A stretch of DNA of 64,000 nucleotides, taken from the NCBI GenBank assembly GCA_037127915.1, contig JBAXXL010000023.1:319-64318 (forward strand). The letters run 5' to 3'. The translations under genes were made by a program, and so were the position numbers. The number at the start of each line of letters is the position of its first letter. Within the stretch, counting starts at the first letter, position 1. Source of the stretch: a bacterium. Its GTDB lineage: Bacteria; Bacteroidota; Ignavibacteria; Kapaibacteriales; UBA2268. The notes under the pieces are model-generated. The model ran no database searches, was not told where the DNA came from, and worked only from the letters and a program-made list of their open reading frames with translations. Below, piece after piece: positions 29,898 to 49,744 of this stretch.

Positions 29898-29907
29898 TTC
29901 AATCCTC

Positions 29908-30410: not shown

Positions 30411-30412
30411 AT

Positions 30413-30720: not shown

Positions 30721-30745
30721 AGCTTTAGGTTAATAATGAGTTTTT

Positions 30746-31396: not shown

Positions 31397-31398
31397 TT

Positions 31399-32237: not shown

Positions 32238-35200
32238 ATGAAGAATTTATCGATTATTTTATTTTTATTACTCTTATTAACCACTCTTGCACAAGGTTCG
32301 CTTACACGTGCACCGGAAGATTTCATGGGTCGCGTTACTTTACCTACAGGTGTAGAAGTGGAAGTACTTAAGTTCAAATCAGATCAAATTGTTTACGCAG
32401 GTACAAATGGTGCCGGCTTATATGTATCCTACGATGGTGGATCAAATTGGGGTAAACTAACCGCTTTTCCAGAGGAATTTCCCTGCATAAAAGATATTCT
32501 TATCACAAAGAACAAGGATTTATATGTTGCCACTTATGGTGGTGGTGTTTACTATTCGAATGATAATGGTGCTACTTTTATCCCTAAAAATAATGGGATC
32601 AAAAATTTATTGATTCAAGCATTGGCTGTTACACAGAGCGGCAAATTACTTTGCGGTACTTACGGCGGCGGAATTTACTATTCCGATAATGATGGAGATT
32701 ATTGGACGAGAACCGATGCAGGATTGCGTTATGACAACGTAACCTGTATAACCGAAATGAATAATGGTTTTATTTTAGCCGGTACTTGGGGTGGTGGATT
32801 TTACGTATCCCGAGATACTTGTAAAACATGGCTTGTATCTAATACCCAATTAACGAACATATTTATTAATGACTTAGTCAAAGATGAATCAGGTAAAGTG
32901 TTTGCTGCTACAAACGGAACCGGAGTTATGTTTACCGGTGATGGTATTACATGGCACAACTATAGTAATAAATATCATCACTACCAAGTAAACGACATAA
33001 GCCCGTTATTGGATACCGCTGTTGTCTCTGTTGGAGTAAATAAATATCAGTTGCTTATGGGTACCAGATCGGCAGGAATGTATTTTTGGGATGATATATG
33101 GAATTGCTGGCAAAATACCGGAGAATTTGCTCTTGGCATAACAGCTTGCGCTGTGTCACCAAACGGGACTATTTTAGCAACTCGAACTTTAGGTGATGTT
33201 ACTAGAAGTACCGATAATGGTGAACATTGGACTATTTGCGCAACAAAAATTATTGAATATGATTTAGCTGAGTTCACAGGATTTGAAGACCAATTAAATC
33301 TTTTTACTAGTAAATTCGATAATTCATTGGTATTGTTTTCAAAGTCAAATACCATCAGGAAAGTCTATAAATCTGAAAATCACGGTTATGATTGGAGATA
33401 TTTAGGATCATTGACCGTTAGGAAAATCAATGATGTTGAAATCACCCCTGAAGGGAACATATTTGTTACCGCTGATGAAGGTGTATATGGTTCGATAGAT
33501 GGAGGTAAAACTTTTAATTCGATATTAACGGTACCTGATAAAAAGGAAAAATACTGGGAATTTTACGATATCGAATATGATGCTGTTACTAAAACTATTG
33601 CAACTACATTTGTATATTTTGTTCCCGATACTATCACTCAGCCGCCAAATAAGCCTAAGCCATTTTTAGAGTGTATAAATCGGATATACAAATCAACAAA
33701 TAATGGTACTTCATGGACGAATGCTGATTATGATACAACAGGTATTGATTTTTTCCATATTGATAAACAATCTAATTGGTATATGAGAAAAGGTATTAGT
33801 TTTGTTAAATCGGTAGACCATGGATTATCTTTTAATGCGTTATTTCCACATAAAGTCAAAAGATTAATTTATGGAAAAGATGGTAATCAATATACTTTTG
33901 ACGATCAGAATCAATTGTTTTATTCTTCGAAATTCAGTTCAACTTTTAATCAAATTCCATTTAAACCGGAAATATTGGTTCCAAGTAATGATTGGAGTAT
34001 TAAGAATATATCTATTGACTCAAATAGTAGAATATATGTTTCGATATGGATTAGCACTCCCTCGCAAGGAGTTATTTACGAACTATATAAGACAGATGAT
34101 TTTGGAAATAACTGGCAAACATTAAAAGGATGTTATAACATGGATAGAATCCGTGGAATATGTTCTGATTATAGCGGATATACATATATATGGACGAATG
34201 CTTTATATAAAGTACTAAATCCTATATCGTTAGATGCGCCATTTACTATAACACCGAAAGATGGTCAAAAGGGCGAAGAAATTAATCCTGATTTTGCTTG
34301 GGAGCGCGCAAAATTTGCTGAAGAATACGAACTTCAAATTGACCAGACCGATTTATTCTATTCACCATTTGAAACTAATGCTACTGGTGATACAACTCTT
34401 AAGGCGGTCATAGAATTGAAATATAACCAAGAGTACTATTGGCGGATAAGGAGCAAAACGCACTCGGCGCGTAGTGCTTGGACAATTAATTCATTTACAA
34501 CGGGAATGGAACCTCCGTTTTTGATTAGCCCTGAGAAAGACGAACTTGGTGTTCCGCTGAATGCCGGTTTAAAATGGCATAAAAAAGAAGAGGCAACGCA
34601 TTATTCAATTCAAGTGGCTGAAGATGAGAATTTTGATAAAATTGTTTATTCGCAAGATAATCATCCCGATACAACTATTACAACTAATAAATTAATCGGA
34701 TTAAAAACTTATTACTGGCGCGTGAAAGCATTTACTTCAAACAATGCCAGCAGTTGGTCCGAAGTTTGGAACTTCCAAACTGTTTTGGGACCGCCGAAAT
34801 TAGTCTATCCTGAAAATAATTCTCTTGATAAATTGCTTTCGGAGCAGTTCAAATGGCATAAATCCGCTGAAGCTCAGACTTATTTTATTCAAGTCGCAAA
34901 AGATTCAGCATTCACGGATTTATTTTTTGAAGGTTCATCAGGTGTGGATACATTTAAAATTATCGATAATATGCTACCCGAGACTGATTACTTTTGGCAT
35001 GTAGCATCGGTAAATACTGAAGGAATCAGTGAATATTCAGAAATATGGACGTTCAGAACATCATTTAAACCTTTAGAATTGCAGACCCCAGCTAACGAAA
35101 AGGTTAATGTCCCTCTTGATACTAAATTTACTTGGTTGGAACACAACGGCGGTAGTCAATATCAAATTCAAATATCAAAAGTTAACGATTTCAAAACAAC

Positions 35201-36194
35201 TGTGGTTGATGAGAAAGTTAATAATTTGCTCGAATACCAAACAAATAAATTGGAATACTACAAAGAGTATTTCTGGCGTGTAAGATTAATTGTCGGTACT
35301 CGTGTTGGTCTATGGTCAGAGGTTTGGGCGTTTAAAACAGGTATTCAAAGTGCAGGACTACTGAATCCGCCGGACAAATCTATCGACCAGCCGACCACAA
35401 TTAAATTCAAATGGTCTGAGATAATAGGTGCGAAATACTATCAATTGCAGATTTCGAAAAACGATAATTTCACGGATTTGGTTTATTCTATGGATTCGCT
35501 GGATAAAGCAGAACAATATGTTGAAGACCTTGAACCAGAATTACTTTATTATTGGCGGGTACGTGCTTGGAATGATGAATCTTATGGAACATCCCAGTGG
35601 TCACAAGTGTGGACATTCACAACCGGCAAGGTTACGCTGATACTCCGCAATCCGAAAACAGGAGCAACAGGAGTTGTTATTCCAACACTTTTAACTTGGT
35701 TTACAGCAACAACTGCGGAATATTATCATCTGCAAGTTGCAAAAGATGCCAATTTTACGAATGTTATTTTTGATAAAGATTCGATTTATGATACCAAATG
35801 TACGCTGTCGAAAACAGATGTCGAAACAAACACAAATTACTTTTGGCATGTAAAAGGCGTAAGCAAAAAATATACAACTCCTTGGAGCGATACGTGGCAA
35901 TTCTCAACCGGAGAAGTATCGGTTAAAGAAAGCCCACTATTCAGCTCAATAAAACTTTATCCAAATCCAACGGGCAGTAAAGCAGAGCTAAGTATCAACG
36001 ATGCTGAAACCTGCGACGCGAAAATATTAATCAGCACAGTGGATGGGAAAATCATTAAAACGGATGTTATCCGATTATTAATTGGCGAAACACGTTATGA
36101 AATTGACACGGAAAAGTTATCTTCCGGATCATACTATATTACGATTATCACACCGTCGGGGTATGTGACGCGGGAATTGATAGTAGTGAAATAA
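32238..36194 (+). CDS. Giant T9SS cargo protein (BNR/Asp-box region, six Fn3-like YYW repeats, sorting domain); inverted paralog of 15123..19088
   Basis: 1318 aa. The first ~70 aa and a 66-aa internal block (LLMGTRSAGMYFWDDIWNCWQNTGEFALGITACAVSPNGTILATRTLGDVTRSTDNGEHWTICA) are near-identical to the minus-strand paralog. Sorting domain about 88% identical to that of 24647..28396. Confidence 0.7.
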   Translation: MKNLSIILFLLLLLTTLAQGSLTRAPEDFMGRVTLPTGVEVEVLKFKSDQIVYAGTNGAGLYVSYDGGSNWGKLTAFPEEFPCIKDILITKNKDLYVATYGGGVYYSNDNGATFIPKNNGIKNLLIQALAVTQSGKLLCGTYGGGIYYSDNDGDYWTRTDAGLRYDNVTCITEMNNGFILAGTWGGGFYVSRDTCKTWLVSNTQLTNIFINDLVKDESGKVFAATNGTGVMFTGDGITWHNYSNKYHHYQVNDISPLLDTAVVSVGVNKYQLLMGTRSAGMYFWDDIWNCWQNTGEFALGITACAVSPNGTILATRTLGDVTRSTDNGEHWTICATKIIEYDLAEFTGFEDQLNLFTSKFDNSLVLFSKSNTIRKVYKSENHGYDWRYLGSLTVRKINDVEITPEGNIFVTADEGVYGSIDGGKTFNSILTVPDKKEKYWEFYDIEYDAVTKTIATTFVYFVPDTITQPPNKPKPFLECINRIYKSTNNGTSWTNADYDTTGIDFFHIDKQSNWYMRKGISFVKSVDHGLSFNALFPHKVKRLIYGKDGNQYTFDDQNQLFYSSKFSSTFNQIPFKPEILVPSNDWSIKNISIDSNSRIYVSIWISTPSQGVIYELYKTDDFGNNWQTLKGCYNMDRIRGICSDYSGYTYIWTNALYKVLNPISLDAPFTITPKDGQKGEEINPDFAWERAKFAEEYELQIDQTDLFYSPFETNATGDTTLKAVIELKYNQEYYWRIRSKTHSARSAWTINSFTTGMEPPFLISPEKDELGVPLNAGLKWHKKEEATHYSIQVAEDENFDKIVYSQDNHPDTTITTNKLIGLKTYYWRVKAFTSNNASSWSEVWNFQTVLGPPKLVYPENNSLDKLLSEQFKWHKSAEAQTYFIQVAKDSAFTDLFFEGSSGVDTFKIIDNMLPETDYFWHVASVNTEGISEYSEIWTFRTSFKPLELQTPANEKVNVPLDTKFTWLEHNGGSQYQIQISKVNDFKTTVVDEKVNNLLEYQTNKLEYYKEYFWRVRLIVGTRVGLWSEVWAFKTGIQSAGLLNPPDKSIDQPTTIKFKWSEIIGAKYYQLQISKNDNFTDLVYSMDSLDKAEQYVEDLEPELLYYWRVRAWNDESYGTSQWSQVWTFTTGKVTLILRNPKTGATGVVIPTLLTWFTATTAEYYHLQVAKDANFTNVIFDKDSIYDTKCTLSKTDVETNTNYFWHVKGVSKKYTTPWSDTWQFSTGEVSVKESPLFSSIKLYPNPTGSKAELSINDAETCDAKILISTVDGKIIKTDVIRLLIGETRYEIDTEKLSSGSYYITIITPSGYVTRELIVVK

Positions 36195-36218
36195 TGAGTT
36201 TATAAAGAAAGAAGAAAG

Positions 36219-36260
36219 AGCCGGTCAAAGAGCGTAATTGCATTGACCGGCTTTTTTTCT
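36219..36260 (+). terminator. Hairpin terminator (AGCCGGTCAA ... TTGACCGGCT plus T7) after 32238..36194
   Basis: Perfect 10-bp stem with 15-nt loop, then TTTTTTT. Followed by a W-module (CTGAATTAGGATTGAATGATTAGAATATT) homologous to 28462-28500 and 30243-30280. Confidence 0.65.
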
Positions 36261-36418
36261 GAATTAGGATTGAATGATTAGAATATTGGTTGTAGACAAC
36301 AGAATGGGTTGTCACGCTTTTGGTGATTTTTAATATAGCAGTCTGAAACTAAATTAGATTTGTCTAACTCAATTAAAAATTGTAATTTTACTTTTTTAAT
36401 AAATCTACAACTTAACTA

Positions 36419-39400
36419 ATGAAAATTATCTTTATAATATATCTAGTAACTCTATTTAATATAGTAAACTGCCAAGCGCAATTACCATCAGGAACAATAT
36501 TACACTTGAAAGCGGACGCGGGATTAGTTCTCAATGGCGATAAAGTAGTCGAATGGCAGGACCAAACTAATTCAGAAATTAAAGCTTTTCAAACTGATGG
36601 CAGTTTGCAGCCGGTTTATGTTAGTGATGGAATCAATGGCAAACCAACTGTCCGGTTCGATGGCACAAAGTTCCTTGAAGCAAGTGCTGTTTTTCCGGTT
36701 TTTGAAGATTATTCGCTTTTTTTTGTAGTTAGTATTTCGAGTTTCAATTATTATAATATGATGGTTTCCGGAAATGGTCATGGAGTATTTTACAATCCGC
36801 CACGAGCTTTTCATACCAATACATCGGTACAAGCAATTTCCAACAAAACATTATCCTTGAACAAACCTGCCCTTATGAGTGTGATTTATACGGAAAGCAC
36901 ACAAACAGTAAAGTTATATATGGATGGAGTTTTGGTAGCTGAAGCTCAAGTGGGTTCGAACTACGATCCTATAATATTTTTAGGAGCATATTATCAAAAT
37001 TATTTCTTATGCGGTGATATTCCCGAAGTTATACTTTACGAACGGGCTATGGACAATGCTGAACAAAAATCTGCTGAGTCATACCTATTTGATAAATATC
37101 TAATCGAACGTCCGGAGGACGGTTTACCAGATAAAACGTTTACCGCTATTCCTGCAAATTATCAATTATTTCCTCGTGATAAAGATAATTATACCAATGT
37201 AAAAATTGCCGGAAATTTTAAACAAACAAAATTCAATAAAATATCGGTTAAAGTTTATAAAAATAATAAAATCACAGAAACTATATCGCAGAACTTAGAT
37301 TTTGTAAATGGTTCTGCGGCTTTTAATTTTGATTGTAAGATCCATGCTGAATTAAGTAATTATAAATTTTTAATTTCCGCAGTGAACTCATCTCGTGATT
37401 CCATAATGAAAGTTAGACACAATATAGTTGCCGGAGATGTGATATTATTGGACGGACAGTCAAATACTCAAGCCAACAACAATTATTATGATATAAACGA
37501 TTTTATTAGAACATTTGGTGGAAATTTTTCAAATTCTGCGGCAGATACACTTTGGGCATTGGGAGATGATTGGTCCACCGGTTTGTTAACCAACATAGGT
37601 GCTTGGGGAATGACATTAGCTCAACGGATTTTGGAAAACCAGAAAGTTCCGGTTTGTGTTATTAACGGTGCAGTTGGCGGAACAATTATCGAATCACATT
37701 TACCCGTCCCCGGTGATAGATATAATTTATCTTCTATCTATGGCAGTATGCTTTATAGAGTAGAAAAAGCCAAACTAAAGAATGCCGCAAGAGCATTATT
37801 TTGGTATCAAGGTGAATCGAACGGAGTTTGGGATTACGAAAACAATTTTATAACGCTTACTAATGAATGGCTAAAAGATTATCCGAATATTCAAAAAATT
37901 TATACTGTCCAAATACATACCGGCTGTGGTGGAGGATATACCCATAGCCAATTGCGCGAGGTTGAACGCCGGATGCCGGAAATAATTAAAAATGTAAAAG
38001 TTGAAACAATTGCGGCTTCGGGATTGCCCGGACACGATGGTTGTCATTATGAATTAATAGGATATCAGACTTTGGGAGAACAGTTGTACCGGCAGTATAA
38101 TAGAGATTTCTTTGGTTCGAAAGATACCGTGGCTATAAGTTCTCCAAACATTAGCGAAGCATTTTTTACAAGCCCGAGTAAAGAGCAAATTGCTTTGGTT
38201 TTCAAACCAAAGCTTACCAAAATGCGTGCTCAAGCCGATACAGTTGTCAGCGGAATTGAAGCCTCATTAAAAGATTATATATATCTGAGCGATGGAGCGA
38301 AAATCATGTCTATAAATTGCGTAAATGATACCGTATTTTTAAATTTGGATAGAGGCTCAAAATCTCAGACAATAACTTATGTTCCTGAATTATATTACCA
38401 TGATTCTTACATAATTTATGAGGGACCATGGTTTTTCAACCAACGAAATATGGGAGCCTTGACATTTGATCAATTCCCAATTGTAGAAAAGAAAGCAATT
38501 ATTATAGATAATTTTACAAAAGAACTGATAGCATGCGCAAACACAGAGAATAACTTCATTATTTGCGCGGCTTCGGAAAGCGGTGGAGCAGTTGCTCAAT
38601 ACCAATGGTATAAAGATGGCGTTGAGCTTTCGGGCGAAACAAATCCTAAACTTGATTTTCCTAATTTTGATTATCCAATTAGCGGCATATACCAATGTAA
38701 GGTTTCAGCCAAAGGAGATTCTAAAGCACTATTGTCGGGAGATATTCCTGTTTATGCTTTAAGTTTACCTGAAATTACAGACCAACCGAAAGAGATCATA
38801 AATGCTCAAATCGGCGGGATATATTCGTTTGAAGTTAAAGCTCATTACCGCGGAAAAGTTCCTCCTTATTACAAGCAATTCTTCCAATGGTATAAATATA
38901 CAGCCGCAACAAATGAGTTTACACCTTTGCCGAATGGTGGTAAATTCGCAGGAGCTACTTCATCAATATTAATTGTAACAGGATTAAGCGATGAAGACTT
39001 TTGCCGAAACGGTGATTATTATTTTGTCGAGATAGTTTCACAATGCGGTTCCGTTCGTTCCAATCCATTTATAATTTCACAAAAACCTGAGATTGTATTC
39101 CGCGATAACCCTAAGGATTTTAATGTTTGTGCAAATACGGATGTCGTTTTTGAAGCTTTTGCTATAGCACCGGTTGGTTATGCGATTGATTATTCTTGGC
39201 AAAAAGACGGCGTTGATTTAATAAACAATGCACAGTACAATGGAGTGAATACTACAAAACTTCAGATATTTAATGTGGATATTACCCAAATGGGTTCCTA
39301 TAAATGTATTGCAAAAATAGTTTCTGAAAATATTTCTGTGGAAAGTACCGCCGGTACCCTGACATTCAAATCAGAACCTATTGCCGCCGCTCTCAGCGAT

Positions 39401-39958
39401 GCTAATCCTACTGTCAAGCGTGGAAACGATGTTGCCTTCAAAGTTGAACTATTGGCAGGAGCGGAGCCTTTAACCGTGGGTTGGAAATTCAATGGCGAAA
39501 TCATCAAAGAAAGTGTTTGGGATGAATTTAATAGCGATAAATTGCTGACCTTATTGCTTGAATCAGTAAACGAAAATCAAGCCGGAGAATATATCTGCTA
39601 CTTGGAAAATGAATGTGCTTTGAAAGAAGTAAATTTCCACTTAAATGTAACGAAATGGGATGAGGCAAACAGTGTAGAAGAAATTTCTGAAAATGGGTAC
39701 TCACTATATACAGCAATTCCTAATCCGACAAACGAAACTGCGACCATAAAATATATAATGCCGCGCTCAGGATTGGTAAAATTTACTTTATCCGATATTA
39801 GCGGTCGAACAATAAGAAATCTGTTTGAAGGATATGCAGTTGAAGGAATGAATACTTTGCTGATCAATGTAAAGCAACTCCATTTATCTACGGGAGTATA
39901 TTTCTATACTATGACAAGTGAAAATTTCTCCGGAGTACGTTCGATTATAGTAGAATAG
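36419..39958 (+). CDS. T9SS cargo protein: N-terminal LamG-like lectin domain, sialate O-acetylesterase-like (SASA/DUF303) domain, Ig-like repeats and a sorting domain
   Basis: 1179 aa. LamG_3-like N-terminus. SASA block I LLDGQSNTQ, block III WYQGESN, D..H (HDGCHY). Ig-like repeats (YQWYKDGVEL, YSWQKDGVDL). C-terminal sorting domain (IPNPTNETATIKY...GVYFYTMTS). Confidence 0.65.
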   Translation: MKIIFIIYLVTLFNIVNCQAQLPSGTILHLKADAGLVLNGDKVVEWQDQTNSEIKAFQTDGSLQPVYVSDGINGKPTVRFDGTKFLEASAVFPVFEDYSLFFVVSISSFNYYNMMVSGNGHGVFYNPPRAFHTNTSVQAISNKTLSLNKPALMSVIYTESTQTVKLYMDGVLVAEAQVGSNYDPIIFLGAYYQNYFLCGDIPEVILYERAMDNAEQKSAESYLFDKYLIERPEDGLPDKTFTAIPANYQLFPRDKDNYTNVKIAGNFKQTKFNKISVKVYKNNKITETISQNLDFVNGSAAFNFDCKIHAELSNYKFLISAVNSSRDSIMKVRHNIVAGDVILLDGQSNTQANNNYYDINDFIRTFGGNFSNSAADTLWALGDDWSTGLLTNIGAWGMTLAQRILENQKVPVCVINGAVGGTIIESHLPVPGDRYNLSSIYGSMLYRVEKAKLKNAARALFWYQGESNGVWDYENNFITLTNEWLKDYPNIQKIYTVQIHTGCGGGYTHSQLREVERRMPEIIKNVKVETIAASGLPGHDGCHYELIGYQTLGEQLYRQYNRDFFGSKDTVAISSPNISEAFFTSPSKEQIALVFKPKLTKMRAQADTVVSGIEASLKDYIYLSDGAKIMSINCVNDTVFLNLDRGSKSQTITYVPELYYHDSYIIYEGPWFFNQRNMGALTFDQFPIVEKKAIIIDNFTKELIACANTENNFIICAASESGGAVAQYQWYKDGVELSGETNPKLDFPNFDYPISGIYQCKVSAKGDSKALLSGDIPVYALSLPEITDQPKEIINAQIGGIYSFEVKAHYRGKVPPYYKQFFQWYKYTAATNEFTPLPNGGKFAGATSSILIVTGLSDEDFCRNGDYYFVEIVSQCGSVRSNPFIISQKPEIVFRDNPKDFNVCANTDVVFEAFAIAPVGYAIDYSWQKDGVDLINNAQYNGVNTTKLQIFNVDITQMGSYKCIAKIVSENISVESTAGTLTFKSEPIAAALSDANPTVKRGNDVAFKVELLAGAEPLTVGWKFNGEIIKESVWDEFNSDKLLTLLLESVNENQAGEYICYLENECALKEVNFHLNVTKWDEANSVEEISENGYSLYTAIPNPTNETATIKYIMPRSGLVKFTLSDISGRTIRNLFEGYAVEGMNTLLINVKQLHLSTGVYFYTMTSENFSGVRSIIVE

Positions 39959-40202
39959 AATGGAAAATTTTGTGAAATAAGTTTGAAGTATTAATAAGTA
40001 TTATGTAAACTTGAATGGTAGTTTATTGGAATAAGACATTATTAAGAAAAATTAATTATTTATAAACTACAGATACAAAAGGATTTGCAACGACCTAAAA
40101 AATATTTTTAATTTTCCTGTAACTTTTTTTGTTTTCATGTGTCTTATAACATACGTTTTGTACAATAATTAGAATTTTATTAATTACTAATGGAGAACAA
40201 AG

Positions 40203-41507
40203 ATGATTTACAAACGAGATTTTCATTTCTTGATTATCTTCCTGTTAAGTTTACTTTTCTTAAATTCGTGCGATACCGCAAATGTTACTGCCCCAGTGAA
40301 AAAAGCTAATTTGGAAGGTTATGTTATTGATTACATAACATACGAAAAAATGTCCGGAGCATTTGTAAAAACAGAACCTGCAACAACGGTGGTTATTACG
40401 GACAATACAGGAAAATTTGTTTTCGAGAATATTGAAGTCAAAGAGTACGTTGTTACAGCACAAAAAAATGGTTATTTCGATGGCAATATAAAAATTGTAT
40501 TAGATGCCGATAATACTAACTCTGTGATCATTCCTATGCGCGACCTGAAAAGTAATTTCGGCAATCTGCACGGATATCTTTACAGCAACCAAACAAAGAG
40601 ACCTATTGCGAATATCGATATCGAAACGATTCCTTTCAATGCAACTGCAAAAACCGACGATAAAGGATATTTTAGTATCGATTTACCACAAGAAAAATTT
40701 ACCTTAGTGTTTAAATCGGCAAATTATAAAACTTACTATCTCAACGACATTCAGGTAACCGGTAAGGTGACAGATGATTATAAATTATATTTGGAACCAT
40801 CTATTCCTGATGGAAATTCATCTTTAGCAAACTACGAAAAAGTATATTATAATTTTGAAAATGGTTATCCTTATGACTTGAGCGGTAATGGTAATCACGG
40901 CTCTTATGTTGGTGAGATTAATTATTCGTCCGGCCGATTCGGTGACGCTGTACATTTAACCGCCGGTAGTGAAAAATATATTTCATTTATTACTGTACCC
41001 TTTATAGATTACGCTAAATTAATGAAGTATTCTGTTGTTATTTGGGCAAAAGAAGAAAATCCAATAGTTAATAATAAAAGTATCTATTATTTCTTTACAG
41101 GTGACGAAAGTATGGGATTTGCTGGAATCGGCCGCAGTAGCTTATGGAATGATAGCACGGATTCTCAAAAGTATTTATGTTTTAGCACCGGAGCCGATAA
41201 GAGTACTATTTATTCACCATATATTCATCATTTTACTATTGATTACAATTCTTGGAATATGTACACTATCGTTAAAGACGGTGATATGATGACTGTTTAT
41301 ATCAATAAAGATAAGGTTGCAACTCTTCAGCAGAATAAAGCCATTAAACCAACTGTTCATTACATAGGCAAATATATTAATACAGAAAATTTAGTTAGCA
41401 CTTTCAACAATTTTGGCGGATACATTGACGAATTCAGAGTGTTTAATACTACTTTAACAGAAGAACAAGTGGCTAATCTATTTTACAATAATTCATTAGG
41501 TAAATAA
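40203..41507 (+). CDS. Lipoprotein with two CarbopepD_reg-like domains and a C-terminal LamG (Laminin_G_3) lectin-like domain; tandem paralog 1 of 4
   Basis: 434 aa. Lipobox LFLNSCDT. CarbopepD_reg-like segments (GYVIDY...VITDNTGKFVFENI). LamG_3 ending YIDEFRVFNTTLTEEQVANLF. Confidence 0.6.
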   Translation: MIYKRDFHFLIIFLLSLLFLNSCDTANVTAPVKKANLEGYVIDYITYEKMSGAFVKTEPATTVVITDNTGKFVFENIEVKEYVVTAQKNGYFDGNIKIVLDADNTNSVIIPMRDLKSNFGNLHGYLYSNQTKRPIANIDIETIPFNATAKTDDKGYFSIDLPQEKFTLVFKSANYKTYYLNDIQVTGKVTDDYKLYLEPSIPDGNSSLANYEKVYYNFENGYPYDLSGNGNHGSYVGEINYSSGRFGDAVHLTAGSEKYISFITVPFIDYAKLMKYSVVIWAKEENPIVNNKSIYYFFTGDESMGFAGIGRSSLWNDSTDSQKYLCFSTGADKSTIYSPYIHHFTIDYNSWNMYTIVKDGDMMTVYINKDKVATLQQNKAIKPTVHYIGKYINTENLVSTFNNFGGYIDEFRVFNTTLTEEQVANLFYNNSLGK

Positions 41508-41534
41508 CCTTATCAATATCGAAAGGAATGAAAA

Positions 41535-42836
41535 ATGAAAAAGTTTATTATTGTGGTTACGCTTTTTGCATTAATTATTATGCTGGATGCATGCACAGAT
41601 AAGAACGTTGTGAAACCATTAGCAAAAGGCTCTGTTAACGGGGTTGTAGTGGATTATGTTACAGGTACACCGCTTGGAAATGTATTTATCTCCTCGGAAC
41701 CGGCTTTCACAACCAAAAAAACAGATAACACCGGTTCGTTTACATTGGATAATCTCGAACCTAATGAATATCAAATAATAGCAGAAAAATCCGATTACGA
41801 GGTGGCAAAAGTTTTAGTACATATAACTGAAGGGAAGACAACTAGTGTTAATATTCCTATGATGAAGAAAAATTTGCAGTATGCGAGATTAAGCGGTACA
41901 ATATTAGGAAGTATCGATACATTACCGCTGAAAGATGTTGAGTTAACTATTAATCCTGAAATCGATGCTTTAAAGGATCTTAAAACCGATGCCGATGGAA
42001 AATTCGATTTGTCATTGCCGCCTGGAGTTTATTCTATTACGTTTATCAAAAAAGATTATTTAACATTGGTTAAGACATTTTCATTCAATCCGTTTCAAAC
42101 TATCTCCAAAGATTTCATTATGGAATTCACTGAAGAATATGTAAATCCGACCAACGTAGTAGATCATTTGGTATATTATAGCTTTGATGAGACCGACAAT
42201 TATTTACAAGATTTTTCCGGTAACAATTTCAACGGAGTTAAATCGGGGACTATTACAACTGAAACCGGTAAATTTGGCAATTGCATCAGGACAACAGGTA
42301 CAACTGATGCCTCAGGCGGCTGGATTAGTATTCCTATGATCCTTAATGAAACAACATTCAGCATAAACTTTTGGGTAAAAGAAATTAGTTTAGCTTATTC
42401 AGGGGGGCAATCATATTTCCAAATCGGCTTGCAAAATACAGGAACTTGTTTTATTGGTAGGTCGGTTCCATGGAGTATATCAGGAGGCGGAACTGATTTG
42501 TTTTATCAATTTGCGGTTGGCGGTAACAATACTCAAACTACTAAACAACCCTTGTATGTTAACGATAATTCCTATACCCCTGCAAATTGGAATATGTTTA
42601 CTTTGGTTTATAAGACGGGGACTATGACAGCTTATATTAATGGCCAAAATGTAGGTTCCCAACAACAAAATTTTGAAATAGGTACAAGCAATAAAATAGG
42701 TATAGGTATCCAATGGTGGTCGTCTAATGCGTCAACAAGACTAAGTGCTTATTATGATGAGTTTAGAATTTTGAATGTTGGTCTTACTGCTCAACAAGTA
42801 TCACTATTGTATCAAAATAATATTTATTCCAGATAA
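41535..42836 (+). CDS. CarbopepD_reg-LamG lipoprotein, tandem paralog 2
   Basis: 433 aa. Lipobox IMLDACTD. ~45-50% identity to paralogs 3 and 4. LamG_3 ending YYDEFRILNVGLTAQQVSLLY. Confidence 0.6.
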   Translation: MKKFIIVVTLFALIIMLDACTDKNVVKPLAKGSVNGVVVDYVTGTPLGNVFISSEPAFTTKKTDNTGSFTLDNLEPNEYQIIAEKSDYEVAKVLVHITEGKTTSVNIPMMKKNLQYARLSGTILGSIDTLPLKDVELTINPEIDALKDLKTDADGKFDLSLPPGVYSITFIKKDYLTLVKTFSFNPFQTISKDFIMEFTEEYVNPTNVVDHLVYYSFDETDNYLQDFSGNNFNGVKSGTITTETGKFGNCIRTTGTTDASGGWISIPMILNETTFSINFWVKEISLAYSGGQSYFQIGLQNTGTCFIGRSVPWSISGGGTDLFYQFAVGGNNTQTTKQPLYVNDNSYTPANWNMFTLVYKTGTMTAYINGQNVGSQQQNFEIGTSNKIGIGIQWWSSNASTRLSAYYDEFRILNVGLTAQQVSLLYQNNIYSR

Positions 42837-42866
42837 ATTAAATTATCGAAAATTGAAGGTAAAAAA

Positions 42867-44171
42867 ATGAAAAGAACAATTTTGATTTTAGGGCTGATTT
42901 GTTTATTTATCATTTCTGCATGTAATGAAAATAATCCTGTTAGCCCAATCCAGAAAGGCTTTATCAGTGGTCAAGTAACTGATTATACTACCGGCCAGCC
43001 TATAGCTAACGTATTGGTAACAACTTGTCCTTCTTCTCGAACCGCGCTGACAGATAATAATGGTAGATTCATTTTAGAAAATATTACTACTGGTGAATAT
43101 AGATTAATTGCGGAAAAAAACGAATTTTCGCCGTCATCTTCCAAAGTGAGCGTTTTATCAAACGATACTACCGATATTGCTGTACCTATGAAATTATCGT
43201 TGAATAAATACGGTTTATTGTATGGTTTATTAACCGACGAGAAGAGTTCACCCCTTGATAGTGTTGAAGTGATTATTAGTGATGGAGCAGAAACAATAGC
43301 TGATACGATTACCGATAGTAAAGGATTTTATAGCATAGCTCTTCCATTCGGCAAATATTATGTGACTTTAAGTAAATCAAATTACCAACCTGTGGATAAG
43401 GATGTTGAAGTTTTAAAAAATCAAGCGATTAATTTGAATGTTGTGTTAATCAAGACTGAAATAGAGATTCCTATCCCAAGTAAATCAGAATTATATGTTT
43501 ACTATAGTTTTAACGTTGATCCAGGAACGACTAATGTAACAGACAATTCAGCAAATGGTTTTAATGGTACGTTGATGAACAAAGACTGTGTATATGAAAC
43601 CGGCAAGTTTGGCAATTGCATAAGATTGATAGGTAAACCCGGTATCACCGGTTGTTGGATTAAACTTCCATGTGCAATGAACCTGCCGGAGTTTACTGTT
43701 AACATGTGGGTTAAAGAGATAAGCTCTAATTGGGGGTCAGGACAAGCATATTTCCAAGCAGGGAATAATTCCAATTCTGTGTGTTTGATCGCCCGTAACG
43801 CTTTTTTCAGTATAGTATCTAACACTTCTGAACTTGATTACAATTTTGCCGTGGGAGCAATAAATACTAGCGGTGCTTCTAATACTCCAATTACTTTAGC
43901 TGACAATGGGTATGATCCTTATGCTTGGAATATGTTTACATTGGTATATAAGAAAGAGGGTTTAATGGACGCATATATTAATGCTAAATTAGTTGGATCA
44001 AAAAATCAGGCGTTCAACATAAACCCAAGTGGTAATATAGGAATAAATGTGCAATGGTGGTCTGGTGATGGTGCTACCAGATTGACAGCTTGCTACGATG
44101 AGTTTAGAATTGATAAATCAGCTTTGTCCACAACAAAAATAGAAAGACTTTATAAAGAAAATAAATATTAA
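42867..44171 (+). CDS. CarbopepD_reg-LamG lipoprotein, tandem paralog 3
   Basis: 434 aa. Lipobox IISACNEN. Shared core motifs ETGKFGNCIR...WVKEIS...GQAYFQAGNN...AWNMFTLVYK...CYDEFRI. Confidence 0.6.
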   Translation: MKRTILILGLICLFIISACNENNPVSPIQKGFISGQVTDYTTGQPIANVLVTTCPSSRTALTDNNGRFILENITTGEYRLIAEKNEFSPSSSKVSVLSNDTTDIAVPMKLSLNKYGLLYGLLTDEKSSPLDSVEVIISDGAETIADTITDSKGFYSIALPFGKYYVTLSKSNYQPVDKDVEVLKNQAINLNVVLIKTEIEIPIPSKSELYVYYSFNVDPGTTNVTDNSANGFNGTLMNKDCVYETGKFGNCIRLIGKPGITGCWIKLPCAMNLPEFTVNMWVKEISSNWGSGQAYFQAGNNSNSVCLIARNAFFSIVSNTSELDYNFAVGAINTSGASNTPITLADNGYDPYAWNMFTLVYKKEGLMDAYINAKLVGSKNQAFNINPSGNIGINVQWWSGDGATRLTACYDEFRIDKSALSTTKIERLYKENKY

Positions 44172-44320
44172 CTTTTTTTAGAGAAAAAATTAAATTTAAG
44201 GAATAATTGACGGAGATTTCTTATATTTGCATATTGGTTTTAAAATAAAGTATTTTTTCAAAAAATAATAGGTTTTTTTCAGAAAAAAAAATGTGTTTTT
44301 AGAATATATTAGGTGTCTTT

Positions 44321-45625
44321 ATGTTAAAAAAATTATTAATCCTCGTGGTACTTCTATCGCCGATTCTTTTCGGCTGTAAGGAAGATACCCCTGTAACTCC
44401 GAGTACAAACGGAAATATTGCCGGCGTTGTACTTGATTTCGATTCTGCTTTGCCATTGGAAAATGTATTTGTTTCAACAATTCCAATCACAACAACAGTA
44501 AAAACAGATGCTCAAGGAAGGTTTACCTTAGAAAATCTGGAAGCTCAAGTTTACAAATTAGTTGTCGAAAAATCAGGGTATGATTCTTACACTACCTCGA
44601 TTTCAGTGCTCGCGACAAAAACTACTCAAATCACTGTTCCGCTCAAATCAAAAACTTCCGGTTACGGAACAATTAGCGGATTTGTTACCAACAAAAAAGA
44701 TTTGAAACCAATCAGCAATGTGATTATTTCAATTTCGCCTGCACCGGATGGATGGACCGATATTAGTACCGACGATACAGGTTATTACACAATTCAATTA
44801 CCGGCAGGTGTTTACACCATGCATTTAACTAAAACTGATTTTAAATCTATAAGCAAAGTATTTACTTTAACCAAAAGCGAATCCGCAAATTTAGATATCG
44901 TTATGGAAGAAGGAACTACTGATCCGCCTATTGATGAAAATTTATATGTTTATTACAGTTTTGATACTCAATTAGGCGGTTCTGCTGTAAAAGATAATTC
45001 CGGCAATGGTTATAACGCCCAAATCGTAAATAATTGTCAATATGAAACAGGTAAGTTTGGAAGTGCAATTAAAACAATAGAAGGTTCAGGTTATTCAGGT
45101 GGATGGATTAAAATGGATTTCCCCTTCAATTTATCTGAATTCACTATAAGTTTTTGGGTTAAAGAAGTATCCGCAGAGTTTGGTGGAGGTCAAGCATACT
45201 TCCAAGCAGGGAACAATGATGATGGTGTATGCCTTATGGGAAGGAATGGAGCTTGGTCTAATATGAATTCAATAGGCGATGGGATAAATTATCATTTTGC
45301 TGTAGGAGCCAACAGTAACGATTATAATGGCTCTAAAGTTCCTTTAGCAGTTAATGACGTAAACTACAATCCTGAATCATGGAATATGTTAACCATGACT
45401 TATAAAAATGGGAAATTTTATGCATATATAAATGGAAATTTAGTTGGTTCAAAGAACCAACCTTTTTCCGTTGTTCAATCTGATTTGATGGGCCTTGGAA
45501 TACAATGGTGGGAAAGTAGTGCTTCAACAAGGCTTACTGCCTATTATGATGAGTTTAGAATATATACAGTATCGTTAACTCAATCCCAAATCACGAATTT
45601 ATACGAAACGAATTCCTTGAATTAA
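44321..45625 (+). CDS. CarbopepD_reg-LamG lipoprotein, tandem paralog 4
   Basis: 434 aa. Lipobox ILFGCKED. Same core motifs. Terminator hairpin at 45654-45685. Confidence 0.6.
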   Translation: MLKKLLILVVLLSPILFGCKEDTPVTPSTNGNIAGVVLDFDSALPLENVFVSTIPITTTVKTDAQGRFTLENLEAQVYKLVVEKSGYDSYTTSISVLATKTTQITVPLKSKTSGYGTISGFVTNKKDLKPISNVIISISPAPDGWTDISTDDTGYYTIQLPAGVYTMHLTKTDFKSISKVFTLTKSESANLDIVMEEGTTDPPIDENLYVYYSFDTQLGGSAVKDNSGNGYNAQIVNNCQYETGKFGSAIKTIEGSGYSGGWIKMDFPFNLSEFTISFWVKEVSAEFGGGQAYFQAGNNDDGVCLMGRNGAWSNMNSIGDGINYHFAVGANSNDYNGSKVPLAVNDVNYNPESWNMLTMTYKNGKFYAYINGNLVGSKNQPFSVVQSDLMGLGIQWWESSASTRLTAYYDEFRIYTVSLTQSQITNLYETNSLN

Positions 45626-45653
45626 TTCCAAAATAAAAAAAATAATTCTTAAA

Positions 45654-45685
45654 GGCAGTTCCATAAACTGCCTTTTTCTTTTGAT
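45654..45685 (+). terminator. Rho-independent terminator (AAGGCAGTT-ccataa-AACTGCCTT plus T-run)
   Basis: Perfect 9-bp stem then TTTTCTTTTG, 28 nt after the stop of 44321..45625. Confidence 0.7.
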
Positions 45686-45780
45686 TGAAATTTAAAAAAA
45701 GTAAGTAAAAAGCAAATTGGGAACAGTTTTTGCTGATATTTTGTTAATTTTGTACTATTAAAAATAGATATATAAAGAAA

Positions 45781-47832
45781 ATGAAGCAAATACTTATACT
45801 CTCTGCATTTTTACTGATTTACTGCAATAGCTTACTGATTTCGCAAGATAATACTGAATATTCTCTTGAAGATTCATTACAAGTTTATGAAAACAAACCG
45901 CGATATGGAGGCTTTTTTCATTTAGGATATGATATTCATCTGGGAGACTTTTCGGGTATTCCGGGTATCCCGAGCTGTTGTCCATCTTATAATTTTGGAA
46001 TGGCACCGGGTATATCGGTTGGAGCACTATACGAAAGACATATTACGGATACTATAGGCTTAAGTTTTCGTTTGGGTTATAATACGATGAATGGAAAATT
46101 CCAATCCGTTGAGCCTACATGGGTAATTCTGGATGGTAAACAAGCTGATGGAGAGTTTACGCATTATTTCAATACCAATATGGGTGTTATATCGTTGGAA
46201 GCATTAGGAAGCTATAAGGTTTGGCGCGATATGGATGTGTATGCGGGTTTGAACTTTGGGCTTATAACTAATGCTGAATACAGCCAATATGAACTAATTA
46301 CTAAACCAGCGGACCGAGCAACATTTCTAAACGGTAAGCAAATAAGAAATGATACATCCGGTCCGATAGATGCTGTACGTCGTTTTCAATGCGGTTTGAC
46401 TTTGGGAGCGGGTTATCCCCTGCCGCTCAATGCGATAAGATCGCTATTTATTGTTCCCGAGGTATTTTATAGTTTTTATTTTACTCCTCCTGTAAAAGAA
46501 ACAACTTGGTTTGCGCAAAGTATAAAAGTAGGTGTGTCGATTAAATACAAACAACCGCCGCCACCACCAAAAGCTCCCGATCCTCCAATGGAGCCGGCAT
46601 CACCGCGTTGGTTGCCTGATCCGCCGGCATTACCTGCAATAACAGCTGATATTTCCGCACAACTATTAGATTCCGCCGGTAATGTCAAGGAAAACGAAAA
46701 TTTGGTTATCGAAGATTTCGTTTCACTAAATTTGAGACCGCTTTTAAATTATATTTTCTTTGAAGAAAACTCTGCTCAATTGCAGAATAAATATATAAAA
46801 CTTTCAAATCAAGAAACGAATAATTTTTCTGATAAAGATTTAGTTCAACTCGATGTATTAGAAACGTATTATCAAGCGTTAAATATTTTCGGAATGCGTC
46901 TGCGGAACAATCCTGATGTTACTATTACGCTTTTGGGTACGAATTCAAATTTGGGCGATGAAAAAGGGAATTTAACACTGTCAGAACAAAGAGCGCAAGC
47001 TGTTAAGGATTATTTCACCCAAGTCTGGGGTATTGATCCGGAAAGAATTAAGATTAAAGCCGTAAATTTACCACCTAAAAAATCGGACGATAGCGATTCT
47101 CCCGAATATGCTTCACAAGAAAACAGACGTGTAGAAATACTTTCGTCGTCTGACATTCTAAGCGAACCAGTAATAACAACCGATACAAAGCGCACTATAT
47201 CTGCCGATAAGATTCAGTTTTTGCCTAAAGTAAATTCGAATATCGATTTAGAATCTTGGAAAGTTGAAGCAAAGCAAGGCGATAAAGTTTTATCCAGTTT
47301 TTCAGCTCAAGGCACACCCCCGGAAGTTTTGGATTGGGATATTGATGCTAATAGCAAGAATGCTCCAACTACCTCAGGTGATATAACTTATTGCTTGGAT
47401 GTAAAAGATAAATTGGGACGTACGACACGTTCAAAATGCTTTAATTTACCTGTTGAGCAGATTACTATAAATAGAAAACGTAGTGAGAATATCAAAGATA
47501 AAGAATTTGAATATTACAGTTTGATATTATTTGATTATGGTAAATCAAATCTTTTAAAAGAACATTCAAAAGTTTTGGATTTTATAAAAGGTAGAATCAC
47601 TCCGAATGCTGTTGTTTATGTAAAAGGTTACACTGACCAAATGGGCGACGAAGAAACAAACGATAGAATAGCTGACAAACGCGCAAATTCCGTCGGTAAC
47701 AGCTTGAGAATAAATAAAGCCAATGTTATAGGATTGGGTGAAAAAGACGCCTTGTTCGATAACAGCACCCCTGAAGGACGCTTCTATTGCCGTACGGTAA
47801 GAATTGAAATTGAAACTCCGGTGGAAAAATAA
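45781..47832 (+). CDS. OmpA-family outer-membrane protein with N-terminal beta-barrel, Pro-rich linker and two OmpA-like peptidoglycan-binding domains
   Basis: 683 aa. Signal peptide. PPPPPKAPDPP linker. Two OmpA_C-like segments (TLLGTNSNLGDEKGNLTLSEQRAQAV; YVKGYTDQMGDEETNDRIADKRANSV). Confidence 0.6.
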   Translation: MKQILILSAFLLIYCNSLLISQDNTEYSLEDSLQVYENKPRYGGFFHLGYDIHLGDFSGIPGIPSCCPSYNFGMAPGISVGALYERHITDTIGLSFRLGYNTMNGKFQSVEPTWVILDGKQADGEFTHYFNTNMGVISLEALGSYKVWRDMDVYAGLNFGLITNAEYSQYELITKPADRATFLNGKQIRNDTSGPIDAVRRFQCGLTLGAGYPLPLNAIRSLFIVPEVFYSFYFTPPVKETTWFAQSIKVGVSIKYKQPPPPPKAPDPPMEPASPRWLPDPPALPAITADISAQLLDSAGNVKENENLVIEDFVSLNLRPLLNYIFFEENSAQLQNKYIKLSNQETNNFSDKDLVQLDVLETYYQALNIFGMRLRNNPDVTITLLGTNSNLGDEKGNLTLSEQRAQAVKDYFTQVWGIDPERIKIKAVNLPPKKSDDSDSPEYASQENRRVEILSSSDILSEPVITTDTKRTISADKIQFLPKVNSNIDLESWKVEAKQGDKVLSSFSAQGTPPEVLDWDIDANSKNAPTTSGDITYCLDVKDKLGRTTRSKCFNLPVEQITINRKRSENIKDKEFEYYSLILFDYGKSNLLKEHSKVLDFIKGRITPNAVVYVKGYTDQMGDEETNDRIADKRANSVGNSLRINKANVIGLGEKDALFDNSTPEGRFYCRTVRIEIETPVEK

Positions 47833-48938
47833 TGAGGGCTACACGAGCTTACATAAATTTGAAAAATTTAGAAGACAATATTGAGGCAATAAGAAAAGAA
47901 ATTCCCGAGTCTGAGATATTAACAGTTATAAAGGCTAATGCCTACGGTCATGGCGCGGTTGAAATCGCACGCGCTTTGCGCCGAATAAATATAAATTATA
48001 TTGGCGTAGCATTTCCTGAAGAAGGTGCCGCTCTAAGAGAGTCAGGGGATTTGGGTGAAATTGTTTGTATTGTCCCTTGTCGAAAAGATGATGTCTCAAT
48101 TTTACTGAATTATAATATTCAAACGGCGATATTCGATATTGATATTTTAAAATACTACTCCAATTATGCTATTGCAAACGGCAAGGTCATAACTGCGCAT
48201 TTGTTTATTAATACCGGTATGAACCGCGATGGTATCCGTTGGGACAAAGCTGTTGAGTTTATGGAGTTGGCAAAAAGCCACAAGGGTGTCAAAATTATCG
48301 GTTTAATGACTCATTATGCTACGTCGGATTTTAGAGAACGTAGTTTTGCTTTGGGGCAACTGAAAGATTTTAATACCGCTTATGAAGAATTAAAGAAAGC
48401 CGGTTTTAGGTTTCAATTTGTCCACTCCGCGAATAGCGGTGCTATTGCCAATCTGCCGGAATCCTACTACAATATGATACGCATGGGAATCAGCGTTTAT
48501 GGACTAATGCCTGAAGAAGAACTTTTAGACCAAATACCGCTTAAACCTGTATTGGAATTAAAAAGCGAAGTACTGGCTATTCAAGAGGTGAAATCGGGGG
48601 AAACGGTAGGGTATTCGTTTCAGTATTTTGCCCGGAATGATACTCGCATTGCAATCGTTCCAATCGGCTATGGTGATGGATATAGACGTTCACTTGGTAA
48701 CAAAGCGCAATGCTTAATTAACGGTAAACGATATTCGGTCGTAGGGTCAGTATGTATGGACCAAATATTTGTTGAAATCTTCCAAGATAAAATTAAAGTT
48801 GGTGATGAAGTTGTTTTAATCGGCAAACAAGGAAATGAATTTATTAGTGTATATGAATTAGCCAATTTTGCCGGGACAATTCCTTATGAAATAACCACCG
48901 GAATTTCGTCAAGAGTACCAAGAATTATAGTGGACTAA
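47832..48938 (+). CDS. alr: Alanine racemase
   Basis: 368 aa. PLP-lysine motif VIKANAYGHGAVE. C-terminal Alr beta-domain (YGDGYRR, SVCMDQIFV). The start codon overlaps the stop of the OmpA-family gene (ATGA). Confidence 0.9.
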   Translation: MRATRAYINLKNLEDNIEAIRKEIPESEILTVIKANAYGHGAVEIARALRRININYIGVAFPEEGAALRESGDLGEIVCIVPCRKDDVSILLNYNIQTAIFDIDILKYYSNYAIANGKVITAHLFINTGMNRDGIRWDKAVEFMELAKSHKGVKIIGLMTHYATSDFRERSFALGQLKDFNTAYEELKKAGFRFQFVHSANSGAIANLPESYYNMIRMGISVYGLMPEEELLDQIPLKPVLELKSEVLAIQEVKSGETVGYSFQYFARNDTRIAIVPIGYGDGYRRSLGNKAQCLINGKRYSVVGSVCMDQIFVEIFQDKIKVGDEVVLIGKQGNEFISVYELANFAGTIPYEITTGISSRVPRIIVD

Positions 48939-48946
48939 GCTGAATA

Positions 48947-49744
48947 ATGAAAATAAATGACGATAAATATTATAAGCAATACCAAGATTTGATCGGTGTA
49001 AATATTGATAATCTTATCAAGTCATTTGATTTTAACGAAGCAGAGACCGATTTAGGATATAAAACTCAGGCAAGTGCTGTATTTTCTTCGAATATCGAAG
49101 GAAATACCATTGATTTGAATTCATTTATGAATTATAAATTATCGCAGGAAAAATTTAAATCCCACAAAGAAATTCGGGAAATCGAAGATTTAGTTTCCGC
49201 TTATGAATTTGCTCAATCCAACCAACTTAATGAAAAGACATTTTTGCATTGTCATAAAATTTTCTCAAAAAATTTAGTTATCGAAAGCAAGCAAGGAAAG
49301 TATCGCACTGAGAAAGTCGGAGTTTTTGGTCAATCAGGACTTGTTTATTTAGCAGTGGAACCGGAATTTGTTCAAGAAGAAATGAAAGAGTTTTTCAAAG
49401 GTATAGCCGATTTACTAAAAATGAATTTATCAAATTCCGAAGTATTTTATTATGCCTCTCTGATTCATCTTAAATTTGTTCATATACATCCTTTTATGGA
49501 TGGGAATGGACGCGCCGCCCGATTAATTGAAAAATGGTTCATCTCTGAAAAGTTGGGTGAAAGATTTTGGAAACTTTTATCCGAAAAATATTATAAAGAG
49601 CATCAGGCGAAATATTATAATAATATCAATTTAGGTGTGAATTATTATGAGTTGAATTACGACAGATGCCTTCCCTTTTTGATGATGCTACCGCAAGCGA
49701 TGGATAATAGTTCGAAAAATACCAATAACTACTTAACAACCTAA
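48947..49744 (+). CDS. fic: Fic-family protein (class II, cis inhibitory motif)
   Basis: 265 aa. Fic active-site motif HPFMDGNGRAARL. N-terminal [ST]xxxE[GN] inhibitory motif SSNIEGN. Confidence 0.85.
   Translation: MKINDDKYYKQYQDLIGVNIDNLIKSFDFNEAETDLGYKTQASAVFSSNIEGNTIDLNSFMNYKLSQEKFKSHKEIREIEDLVSAYEFAQSNQLNEKTFLHCHKIFSKNLVIESKQGKYRTEKVGVFGQSGLVYLAVEPEFVQEEMKEFFKGIADLLKMNLSNSEVFYYASLIHLKFVHIHPFMDGNGRAARLIEKWFISEKLGERFWKLLSEKYYKEHQAKYYNNINLGVNYYELNYDRCLPFLMMLPQAMDNSSKNTNNYLTT

Follow-up and report, generated by a model that had tools for sequence, protein, structure and literature searches.

The stretch of 11.4 kb considered here (positions 36419 to 47832 of the window, i.e. of the whole 64 kb of DNA analysed, which stems from an uncultured bacterium of the class Kapaibacteriia, assigned to the Bacteroidota by NCBI taxonomy) carries six genes on one strand. 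They encode a large esterase with a sorting domain for the type IX secretion system (T9SS; gene 1), four tandem related lipoproteins (P1 to P4) and an OmpA-family outer-membrane protein which adjoins the alanine racemase gene alr. A first-pass annotation, whose coordinates for all six open reading frames (ORFs) agree exactly with ours, had read them as a single locus for the capture and de-acetylation of glycans. The comparison with related genomes makes it probable that we are dealing with three separate envelope modules lying side by side and not with one system.

Synteny of the six genes in related genomes

Gene 1 (36419..39958, plus strand, 1179 amino acids) is followed on the same strand by P1 (40203..41507, 434 amino acids), P2 (41535..42836, 433 amino acids), P3 (42867..44171, 434 amino acids), P4 (44321..45625, 434 amino acids) and the OmpA-family gene (45781..47832, 683 amino acids), the gaps between them amounting, in this order, to 244, 27, 30, 149 and 155 nt. 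Near relatives were compared whose OmpA protein is 88-94% identical. In three of them (contigs L001, L002 and L003) the order is DUF2442/DUF4160, a UDP-glucose dehydrogenase (UGDH) gene on the minus strand, one lipoprotein gene, the OmpA gene, alr and a gene for a Fic-domain protein. Neither the esterase gene nor P1 to P3 is present on these contigs. Alignment of L001 with the window by blastn yields three blocks (L001 351-1068 corresponding to window 28615-29330, 2683-2792 to 40039-40147 and 2823-8322 to 44214-49718). The middle block, a shared plus-strand segment at 40039..40147 which is also aligned in L002 and L003, directly precedes the one P4 ortholog of the relatives, while in the window it lies 5' of P1 and is separated from P4 by P1 to P3. 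Hence, window positions 40148-44213, which comprise P1 to P3, constitute an indel between the shared upstream segment and P4. A second block, positions 29633-40038, stands in place of the relatives' UGDH gene and is absent from all three contigs; it contains a DUF2283 gene, two further tandem lipoprotein genes, a gene for a T9SS cargo protein of 1318 amino acids and the esterase gene.

A fourth relative, L009 (OmpA 88% identical), possesses UGDH, OmpA and alr genes and has neither a lipoprotein nor a Fic gene. Its homology to the window sets in at position 45611, 14 nt before the P4 stop codon, so that of the lipoprotein gene just the final ~15 nt are left, whereas the hairpin and the OmpA upstream region described below are retained. 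This 3' remnant is the footprint of a deletion and indicates that the lipoprotein gene is dispensable. Thus, the slot upstream of the OmpA gene holds zero, one or four lipoprotein genes among close relatives. Orthologs of gene 1 with 67-72% identity (L015 to L017) have unrelated neighbours, and neither a member of the lipoprotein family (searched by tblastn) nor an OmpA gene is found beside them; likewise, OmpA orthologs with 36-47% identity (L006 to L008) are adjoined neither by a lipoprotein gene nor by alr. This synteny, which splits esterase, lipoproteins and OmpA-alr from each other, is decisive evidence against a single six-gene locus.

In the one-locus proposal the LamG lipoproteins would capture acetylated glycans of host or algal origin, the esterase would de-acetylate them and the OmpA protein would serve as anchor. 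It is attractive insofar as all products are secreted or reside in the outer membrane, all genes share one strand, gene 1 and P1 to P4 alike carry LamG domains akin to carbohydrate-binding modules, and the catalytic triad of the esterase is intact. Against this, the co-location of the six genes is unique to the source assembly. Furthermore, a gap of 244 nt separates gene 1 from P1, a terminator-like structure lies between P4 and the OmpA gene, and the window contains no glycoside hydrolase partner or regulator for such a system. A SusC/SusD-type transporter is not encoded by any of the 32 window ORFs scanned, and no TonB_dep_Rec or SusD-type Pfam match occurs in these ORFs or in the listed related loci. 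As the 64 kb contain eight T9SS cargo genes (starting at 7569, 11908, 15123, 24647, 32238, 36419, 49900 and 58849), the adjacency of the esterase gene to any other gene is expected by chance and means little. Synteny has largely refuted the one-locus proposal, and we consider it very improbable.

The intergenic regions are in agreement with a division into modules. Immediately downstream of P4, a hairpin resembling an intrinsic terminator is present on the plus strand (45651..45683; a GC-containing stem of 10 bp followed by a T-run), which is conserved in L001, L003 and the lipoprotein-less L009. It is followed by a near-invariant region of 94 nt directly upstream of the OmpA gene (45687..45780, plus strand, including TAATTTTG), which is kept in the same three relatives (89% identity to the L009 spacer) and may function as a promoter. 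Together with the short gaps of 27 and 30 nt within P1 to P3 and the gap of 244 nt behind gene 1, these elements suggest at least three transcription units, i.e. gene 1, P1 to P3 (possibly extending into P4) and OmpA-alr-Fic. P4 retains a conserved upstream region of its own. Scans for sigma-70 promoters, with 66 found and 61 expected, remained at background.

Architecture of the lipoproteins P1 to P4

Each of the four tandem lipoproteins comprises two CarboxypepD_reg domains (CRD1 and CRD2) and a C-terminal Laminin_G_3 domain above the profile cut-off (35-51 bits). The lipoboxes, located at residues 19-23, read LNSC in P1 (lipidated residue Cys23), LDAC in P2, ISAC in P3 and LFGC in P4, and their cysteine is invariant in the family alignment. 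The AlphaFold2 (AF2) model of P4 (pLDDT 79.6) is all-beta and consists of three domains. The best structural relatives of its head are carbohydrate binders; further down the fold matches are the Hc-N domain of clostridial neurotoxins, lectin domains of trans-sialidases, CBM40 modules and pentraxins. Both profile and fold matches thus bear out the first-pass assignment of the C-terminal domains as LamG-like.

Lipoproteins of Bacteroidota are sent to the cell surface by the export signal K-(D/E)2 (PMC5080379). Exactly this signal follows the lipidated cysteine of P4 and of two of its three orthologs (P0002 and P0004), which read C-K-E-D at this position; the third ortholog (P0003) reads C-T-E-D. 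P1 (C-DTAN), P2 (C-TDKN) and P3 (C-NENN) show partial acidic character compared with K-(D/E)2 or Q-A-(D/E)2, and acidic residues follow the cysteine in every family member. These residues, in a class belonging to the Bacteroidota, make surface exposure of P1 to P4 probable. All four, filling the cassette slot upstream of the OmpA gene, are acylated at the lipobox cysteine and would be displayed on the cell surface, where the two transthyretin-like domains may act as a stalk holding out the ConA/LamG-like lectin head, which in turn may bind a glycan or some other ligand outside the cell.

The first-pass annotation had put the identity among the paralogs at 45-50% and had inferred a diversified ligand-binding surface. 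The former value holds for the LamG domains of P2 to P4 only (45-48%); over their full length these three proteins are 39-42% identical, and P1, the most divergent copy, shares merely 25-29% with the others. The latter notion is not supported, since LamG is the best conserved part among P2 to P4 and CRD2 the least conserved one (27-30%), which does not fit a binding head as the focus of diversification.

Distribution and evolution of the lipoprotein family

When 5.8 billion proteins were searched through a word index with P4 as query, only nine matches were obtained, namely P4 itself, three orthologs with 81-89% identity, a fragment of 239 amino acids with 76% identity, P3 and three remote proteins. 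P4 is the only copy with orthologs in related assemblies; for P1, neither protein-sequence nor HMMER profile searches found an ortholog outside the source assembly. Scanning 185,579 species-representative genomes and the JGI metagenomes revealed no relatives of the lipoproteins closer than 24-29%, the former set yielding just two irrelevant weak loci and the JGI contigs just two weak loci with 27-29% identity. The exhaustive HMMER profile search was dominated by giant multi-CRD proteins; within its top 150 matches the only additional family members are P0166 (426 amino acids) and the longer variants P0257 and P0250 with extra CRDs. P0166 is encoded on a contig of 2.6 kb (L011), where a second paralog, 46% identical to it, follows 22 nt downstream. 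Further members (L012 to L014) are flanked by a DUF5777 gene on one side and a methyltransferase gene on the other. In a neighbour-joining tree the L011 pair groups together (support 92), as does P4 with its orthologs (89), and both groups are joined (76) with P1, P2 and P3 outside. Consequently, tandem duplication has occurred independently at least twice. P1 to P3 are old lineages lacking sampled orthologs. All that a literature search for the CRD-CRD-LamG combination brought up was a paper on giant proteins, which is unrelated. Although very narrow and uncharacterised, the family joins common domains in a common way.

As the synonymous sites of the paralogs are saturated at 25-42% amino-acid identity, dN/dS was determined from orthologs, and with ortholog dS between 0.5 and 2 the values are rough. 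They amount to 0.13-0.14 for P4 as a whole, with 0.05-0.10 for CRD1, 0.12-0.18 for CRD2 and 0.12-0.15 for LamG, compared with 0.03-0.05 for OmpA, 0.013-0.017 for alr and 0.12 for Fic. P4 is under purifying selection which is relaxed relative to its housekeeping neighbours, and its ortholog dN/dS gives no domain-wide sign of diversifying selection. With respect to the same genome pair (window and L001), dS is uneven along 44321-49744, being approximately 0.54 for P4 and Fic, 1.0 for OmpA and 1.4 for alr, which could reflect recombination, mosaic ancestry or noise near saturation.

Alternative roles of the lipoproteins

The lipoproteins might face the periplasm and work together with the OmpA protein, for instance in a complex linked to alr which tethers the outer membrane to peptidoglycan or remodels it. 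The order P4-OmpA-alr, kept in L001 to L003, is in line with such a role, as is the fusion of CarboxypepD_reg to OmpA_C found elsewhere (P0008; PorE-type, a weak NCBIfam match). Yet L009 and L010 possess OmpA-alr without any lipoprotein gene, the OmpA orthologs with 36-47% identity never have one nearby, and a terminator-like hairpin plus a separate conserved promoter-like region lies between P4 and the OmpA gene. Since, in addition, the family members in L012 to L014 have unrelated neighbours and the dN/dS of the lipoprotein exceeds that of OmpA or alr three- to eightfold, we regard a periplasmic role as improbable.

Somewhat less improbable, though still unlikely, is a mainly non-nutritional function as variable surface proteins, i.e. 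as adhesins towards other cells or particles, as an S-layer-like coat, or as decoys or variants driven by phages or predators, whose pressure would account for the turnover in copy number. Such a function would accommodate the variation in copy number among relatives (zero, one, two or more, or four), the deep divergence of the paralogs, the relaxed selection, the frequency of CRD/PEGA-type domains in S-layer and adhesin proteins (weak matches) and the occurrence of LamG folds, seen among the fold matches, in receptor-binding domains of toxins, in minor pilins and in a phage tailspike. It is at odds with the lack of any sign of positive selection across whole domains (omega of LamG 0.12-0.15) and with the carbohydrate-binding nature of the closest structural relatives of the head. 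Moreover, the surroundings of the lipoprotein array revealed neither repeats nor invertases nor any other signal of phase variation, and PADLOC matched no defence family to P1 to P4 or gene 1. Two named candidates, the S-layer glycoprotein Kustd1514 (34-55 bits against 1400) and the fimbrial protein TafC (15-25 bits against 410), were rejected as single-domain likenesses.

We favour P1 to P4 as surface-displayed, lectin-headed lipoproteins which, as old paralogs (25-42% identical) gained and lost over time, would form an accessory binding repertoire rather than a fixed pathway. Going further, they might represent an undescribed, SusCD-independent surface lectin repertoire of Kapaibacteriia, housed in a cassette slot by the OmpA gene with zero to four copies among congeners; we put this forward as a speculation which is on the whole unlikely to hold.

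Several points weigh against the division into three modules with surface-exposed lipoproteins. The comparison genomes are without exception fragmentary contigs from metagenomes or metagenome-assembled genomes (MAGs), so that paralogs could lie elsewhere in them, and the indel comprising P1 to P3 may be an insertion in the lineage of the window or a deletion in its relatives. The adjacency of P4 and the OmpA gene is kept in three assemblies and may, at that short evolutionary distance, reflect a functional link. The terminator and promoter assignments are consensus matches only. Finally, the lipoprotein export signal was established with Capnocytophaga, Bacteroides and Flavobacterium and not with members of Kapaibacteriia, and P1 to P3 carry one or two acidic residues behind the cysteine, not the full consensus.

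A T9SS-targeted esterase

The product of gene 1 starts with a hydrophobic segment consistent with a signal peptide, to which a LamG jelly-roll (residues ~22-232), a first beta-sandwich (~240-335), the SASA/SGNH esterase domain (~336-566), a second beta-sandwich (~575-690), approximately four Ig-like domains (~700-1085) and a type A C-terminal sorting domain (1101-1178) are attached. This arrangement, whose LamG, SASA, Ig-like and sorting domains had been recognised in the first-pass annotation, follows from Pfam and NCBIfam profiles and from the AF2 model. The SASA profile (PF03629) scores 61.3 bits (cut-off 24.8) and covers profile positions 60-224 only; the Ig-type matches are Ig_3, I-set and Ig_2, and the sorting domain is recognised by TIGR04183 (31.1 bits, cut-off 23) and by PF18962 Por_Secre_tail (30.4 bits, cut-off 27). 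Solely the N-terminal Laminin_G_3 match (23.4 bits) remains below its cut-off of 27.6; here, the jelly-roll is backed by the AF2 model (pLDDT 88) and by fold matches, which retrieve the same lectin-like jelly-rolls as the head of P4.

In an alignment of 24 homologs (26-72% identity) the residues Gly346-Gln-Ser348-Asn349, Gln464-Gly-Glu466 and His543 are invariant, and Gly421 and Asp540 are conserved to at least 90%. The codon of the predicted nucleophile Ser348, within the invariant GQSN block, occupies 37460..37462, those of Asp540 and His543 occupy 38036-38038 and 38045-38047 (all plus strand). The SGNH triad and the oxyanion residues are thus intact, as the motifs GQSN, QGESN and D..H noted at first pass had implied. 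Foldseek relates the AF2 model to the CE20 acetylesterase XAC1771 (7kmm, E 1.9e-21) and to 8f9p (4.5e-20), further matches being mammalian SIAE, a Pedobacter CE20 enzyme, 2apj and 1zmb. XAC1771 was first annotated as a sialate 9-O-acetylesterase, yet it de-acetylates xyloglucan oligosaccharides (PMC8245568). In the light of this mis-annotation, the name "sialate O-acetylesterase", which many homologs of gene 1 bear, does not fix its substrate. A sialic-acid context is not evident either, as the 32 window ORFs scanned include neither a GH33 sialidase nor a nan gene.

For the N-terminal 692 residues 70 homologs are detectable, many of which are LamG-SASA-T9SS proteins of ~780 amino acids with 37-44% identity over the full length, originating from Candidatus Kapaibacterium or Ignavibacteria. 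There is nothing unusual about gene 1 within this LamG-SASA family, which is widespread in Kapaibacteriia and Ignavibacteria. Its product would be a type IX-secreted carbohydrate O-acetylesterase with an SGNH/SASA fold closest to CE20 enzymes and SIAE; the LamG domain probably aids in finding the substrate, and the Ig-like domains may keep the enzyme at a distance from the sorting domain. The gene itself lies in a strain-specific island amid many other T9SS cargo genes.

The OmpA-alr unit

The protein of 683 amino acids consists of an OMP_b-brl_2 beta-barrel (Pfam/NCBIfam) to which a Pro-rich linker and two OmpA_C domains are joined, the linker and the paired domains having been noted in the first-pass description. 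More than 140 full-length homologs (30-89% identity, ~100% coverage, 670-715 amino acids) from Kapabacteria/Kapaibacteriota, Ignavibacteriota and Bacteroidota MAGs identify the combination of a barrel and two OmpA_C domains as a housekeeping outer-membrane protein at phylum level. None of the named equivalogs tested (PorE, CHU_0125, Pal, YiaD) reaches its NCBIfam cut-off, the best being YiaD with 94.8 bits (cut-off 175), while PorE scores 37 (cut-off 600) and CHU_0125 21.5 (cut-off 620); on these scores the protein classifies as a generic OmpA-family member only. On a related Ignavibacteria contig (L008), two OmpA-family genes for proteins of ~680-710 amino acids (2101-4131 and 9838-11131) lie within 8 kb, indicating that the double-OmpA protein itself is duplicable in related phyla.

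The alanine racemase gene alr (47832..48938, plus strand; TIGR00492 at 361 bits, assignment also supported by synteny) overlaps the OmpA gene by 1 nt, base 47832 being common to the OmpA stop codon and the alr ATG, in line with the coupling proposed at first pass. The pair is kept in L001, L003, L009 and L010, i.e. tight coupling is confined to near relatives. Downstream of alr, the Fic-domain gene (48947..49744, plus strand; PADLOC candidates SoFic at 94 bits and PDC-S04), by its presence in L001 to L003 and absence from L009, proves to be an accessory addition to a pair of housekeeping genes. OmpA-alr, with Fic, may therefore be viewed as a conserved envelope unit with a promoter-like region of its own, in which the OmpA protein would tether the outer membrane to peptidoglycan and alr would supply D-alanine.

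Further features of the window

The density of T9SS cargo genes in the window is very high, interspersed with housekeeping genes such as tyrS, recG, a dacB-like S13 peptidase gene and genes for DsbD, IMPDH and an M24 peptidase. The cargo protein of 1318 amino acids (32238-36194) contains approximately ten Asp-box motifs (SxDxGxTW-like) in its N-terminal propeller region as well as repeated Ig_Rha78A_N/fn3-like domains. It is not recognisable as a GH33 sialidase, its only match of this kind being a partial one to the generic NCBIfam F510_1955 glycosylhydrolase model (93 bits, cut-off 175). The sorting-domain coding ends of this gene and of the cargo gene at 24647-28396 form a direct repeat of 275 nt with 88% identity (28121-28395 and 35919-36193). 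Its two copies enclose a portion of the variable block and could serve as sites of recombination. On the minus strand, 15123-19088 encodes a third cargo protein paralogous to these two.

Within the strain-specific block, two tandem paralogous lipoprotein-like genes on the minus strand (30746-31396 and 31399-32067; 216 and 222 amino acids) share 74% DNA identity, their N- and C-termini being nearly identical; neither Pfam nor PADLOC yields a match for the pair. The adjacent region 28451-30719 is a mosaic of small genes, comprising DUF2442 (28652-28894), DUF4160 (28898-29164) and DUF2283 (29664-30023), the last followed by an overlapping ORF of 75 amino acids. Intergenic segments are duplicated therein (29307-29638 resembles 30387-30719 with 82% and 28451-28635 resembles 30227-30405 with 76% identity). 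The DUF4160/DUF2442 pair recurs in L001, L002 and L015.

Significance

The main value of this analysis is corrective, in that an apparent "system" read from a single sequence falls apart upon comparison with related genomes. Esterase and OmpA protein each add a new member to a family already known, and no long-standing question is answered by these results. What remains is a lineage-restricted set of lectin-headed lipoproteins, subject to rapid gain and loss, in an uncultured and little-studied class of Bacteroidota, along with a family of T9SS-secreted LamG-SASA esterases widespread in Kapaibacteriia and Ignavibacteria. If the lipoproteins are surface lectins, they offer a handle on polymer attachment or sensing without Sus-type machinery. 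Should a surface lectin repertoire in the slot beside the OmpA gene be real, the set of lipoproteins present would decide on the particles, polymers or partner cells to which a bacterium attaches, or on the phages able to adsorb to it.

Comparison with known systems

Gene 1 shares with SIAE and with CE20 enzymes (XacXaeA/XAC1771 of Xanthomonas citri, PpCE20_II of Pedobacter) a module of beta-sandwich and SGNH/SASA domain as well as a Ser-His-Asp triad placed in GQSN, QGE and DxxH blocks, with Foldseek E values of 2e-21 to 1e-17. It differs from them in that the identity is only 12-16%, in its additional N-terminal LamG domain, four Ig-like domains and T9SS sorting domain, and in its location outside any locus for the utilisation of xyloglucan or sialic acid. 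The protein of 683 amino acids resembles OmpA-family peptidoglycan-associated proteins with respect to its N-terminal barrel, Pro-rich linker and OmpA_C domain; it deviates by possessing two OmpA_C domains with an extra beta-rich segment in between, and its architecture of 670-700 amino acids is kept throughout Kapaibacteriia and Ignavibacteria without reaching any NCBIfam equivalog cut-off.

P1 to P4 can be compared to the SusE/SusF-type surface glycan-binding proteins of Bacteroidota Sus-like systems, with which they share an N-terminal lipid anchor, an acidic stretch resembling the export signal, tandem Ig-like beta-sandwiches with a terminal domain of carbohydrate-binding type, and fast evolution with poor conservation between strains. 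In contrast to these, they are accompanied in the window neither by a SusC/SusD pair nor by the context of a polysaccharide utilisation locus, and their head is Laminin_G_3/ConA-like rather than a carbohydrate-binding module of the SusE/F type. No sequence homology was detected between them; the likeness is one of functional analogy only. A further counterpart of the head is domain 4 of the GH43 arabinanase AbnA from Geobacillus stearothermophilus (PDB 5hon), which is an appendage of an enzyme, whereas in P1 to P4 it forms the head of a non-catalytic lipoprotein.

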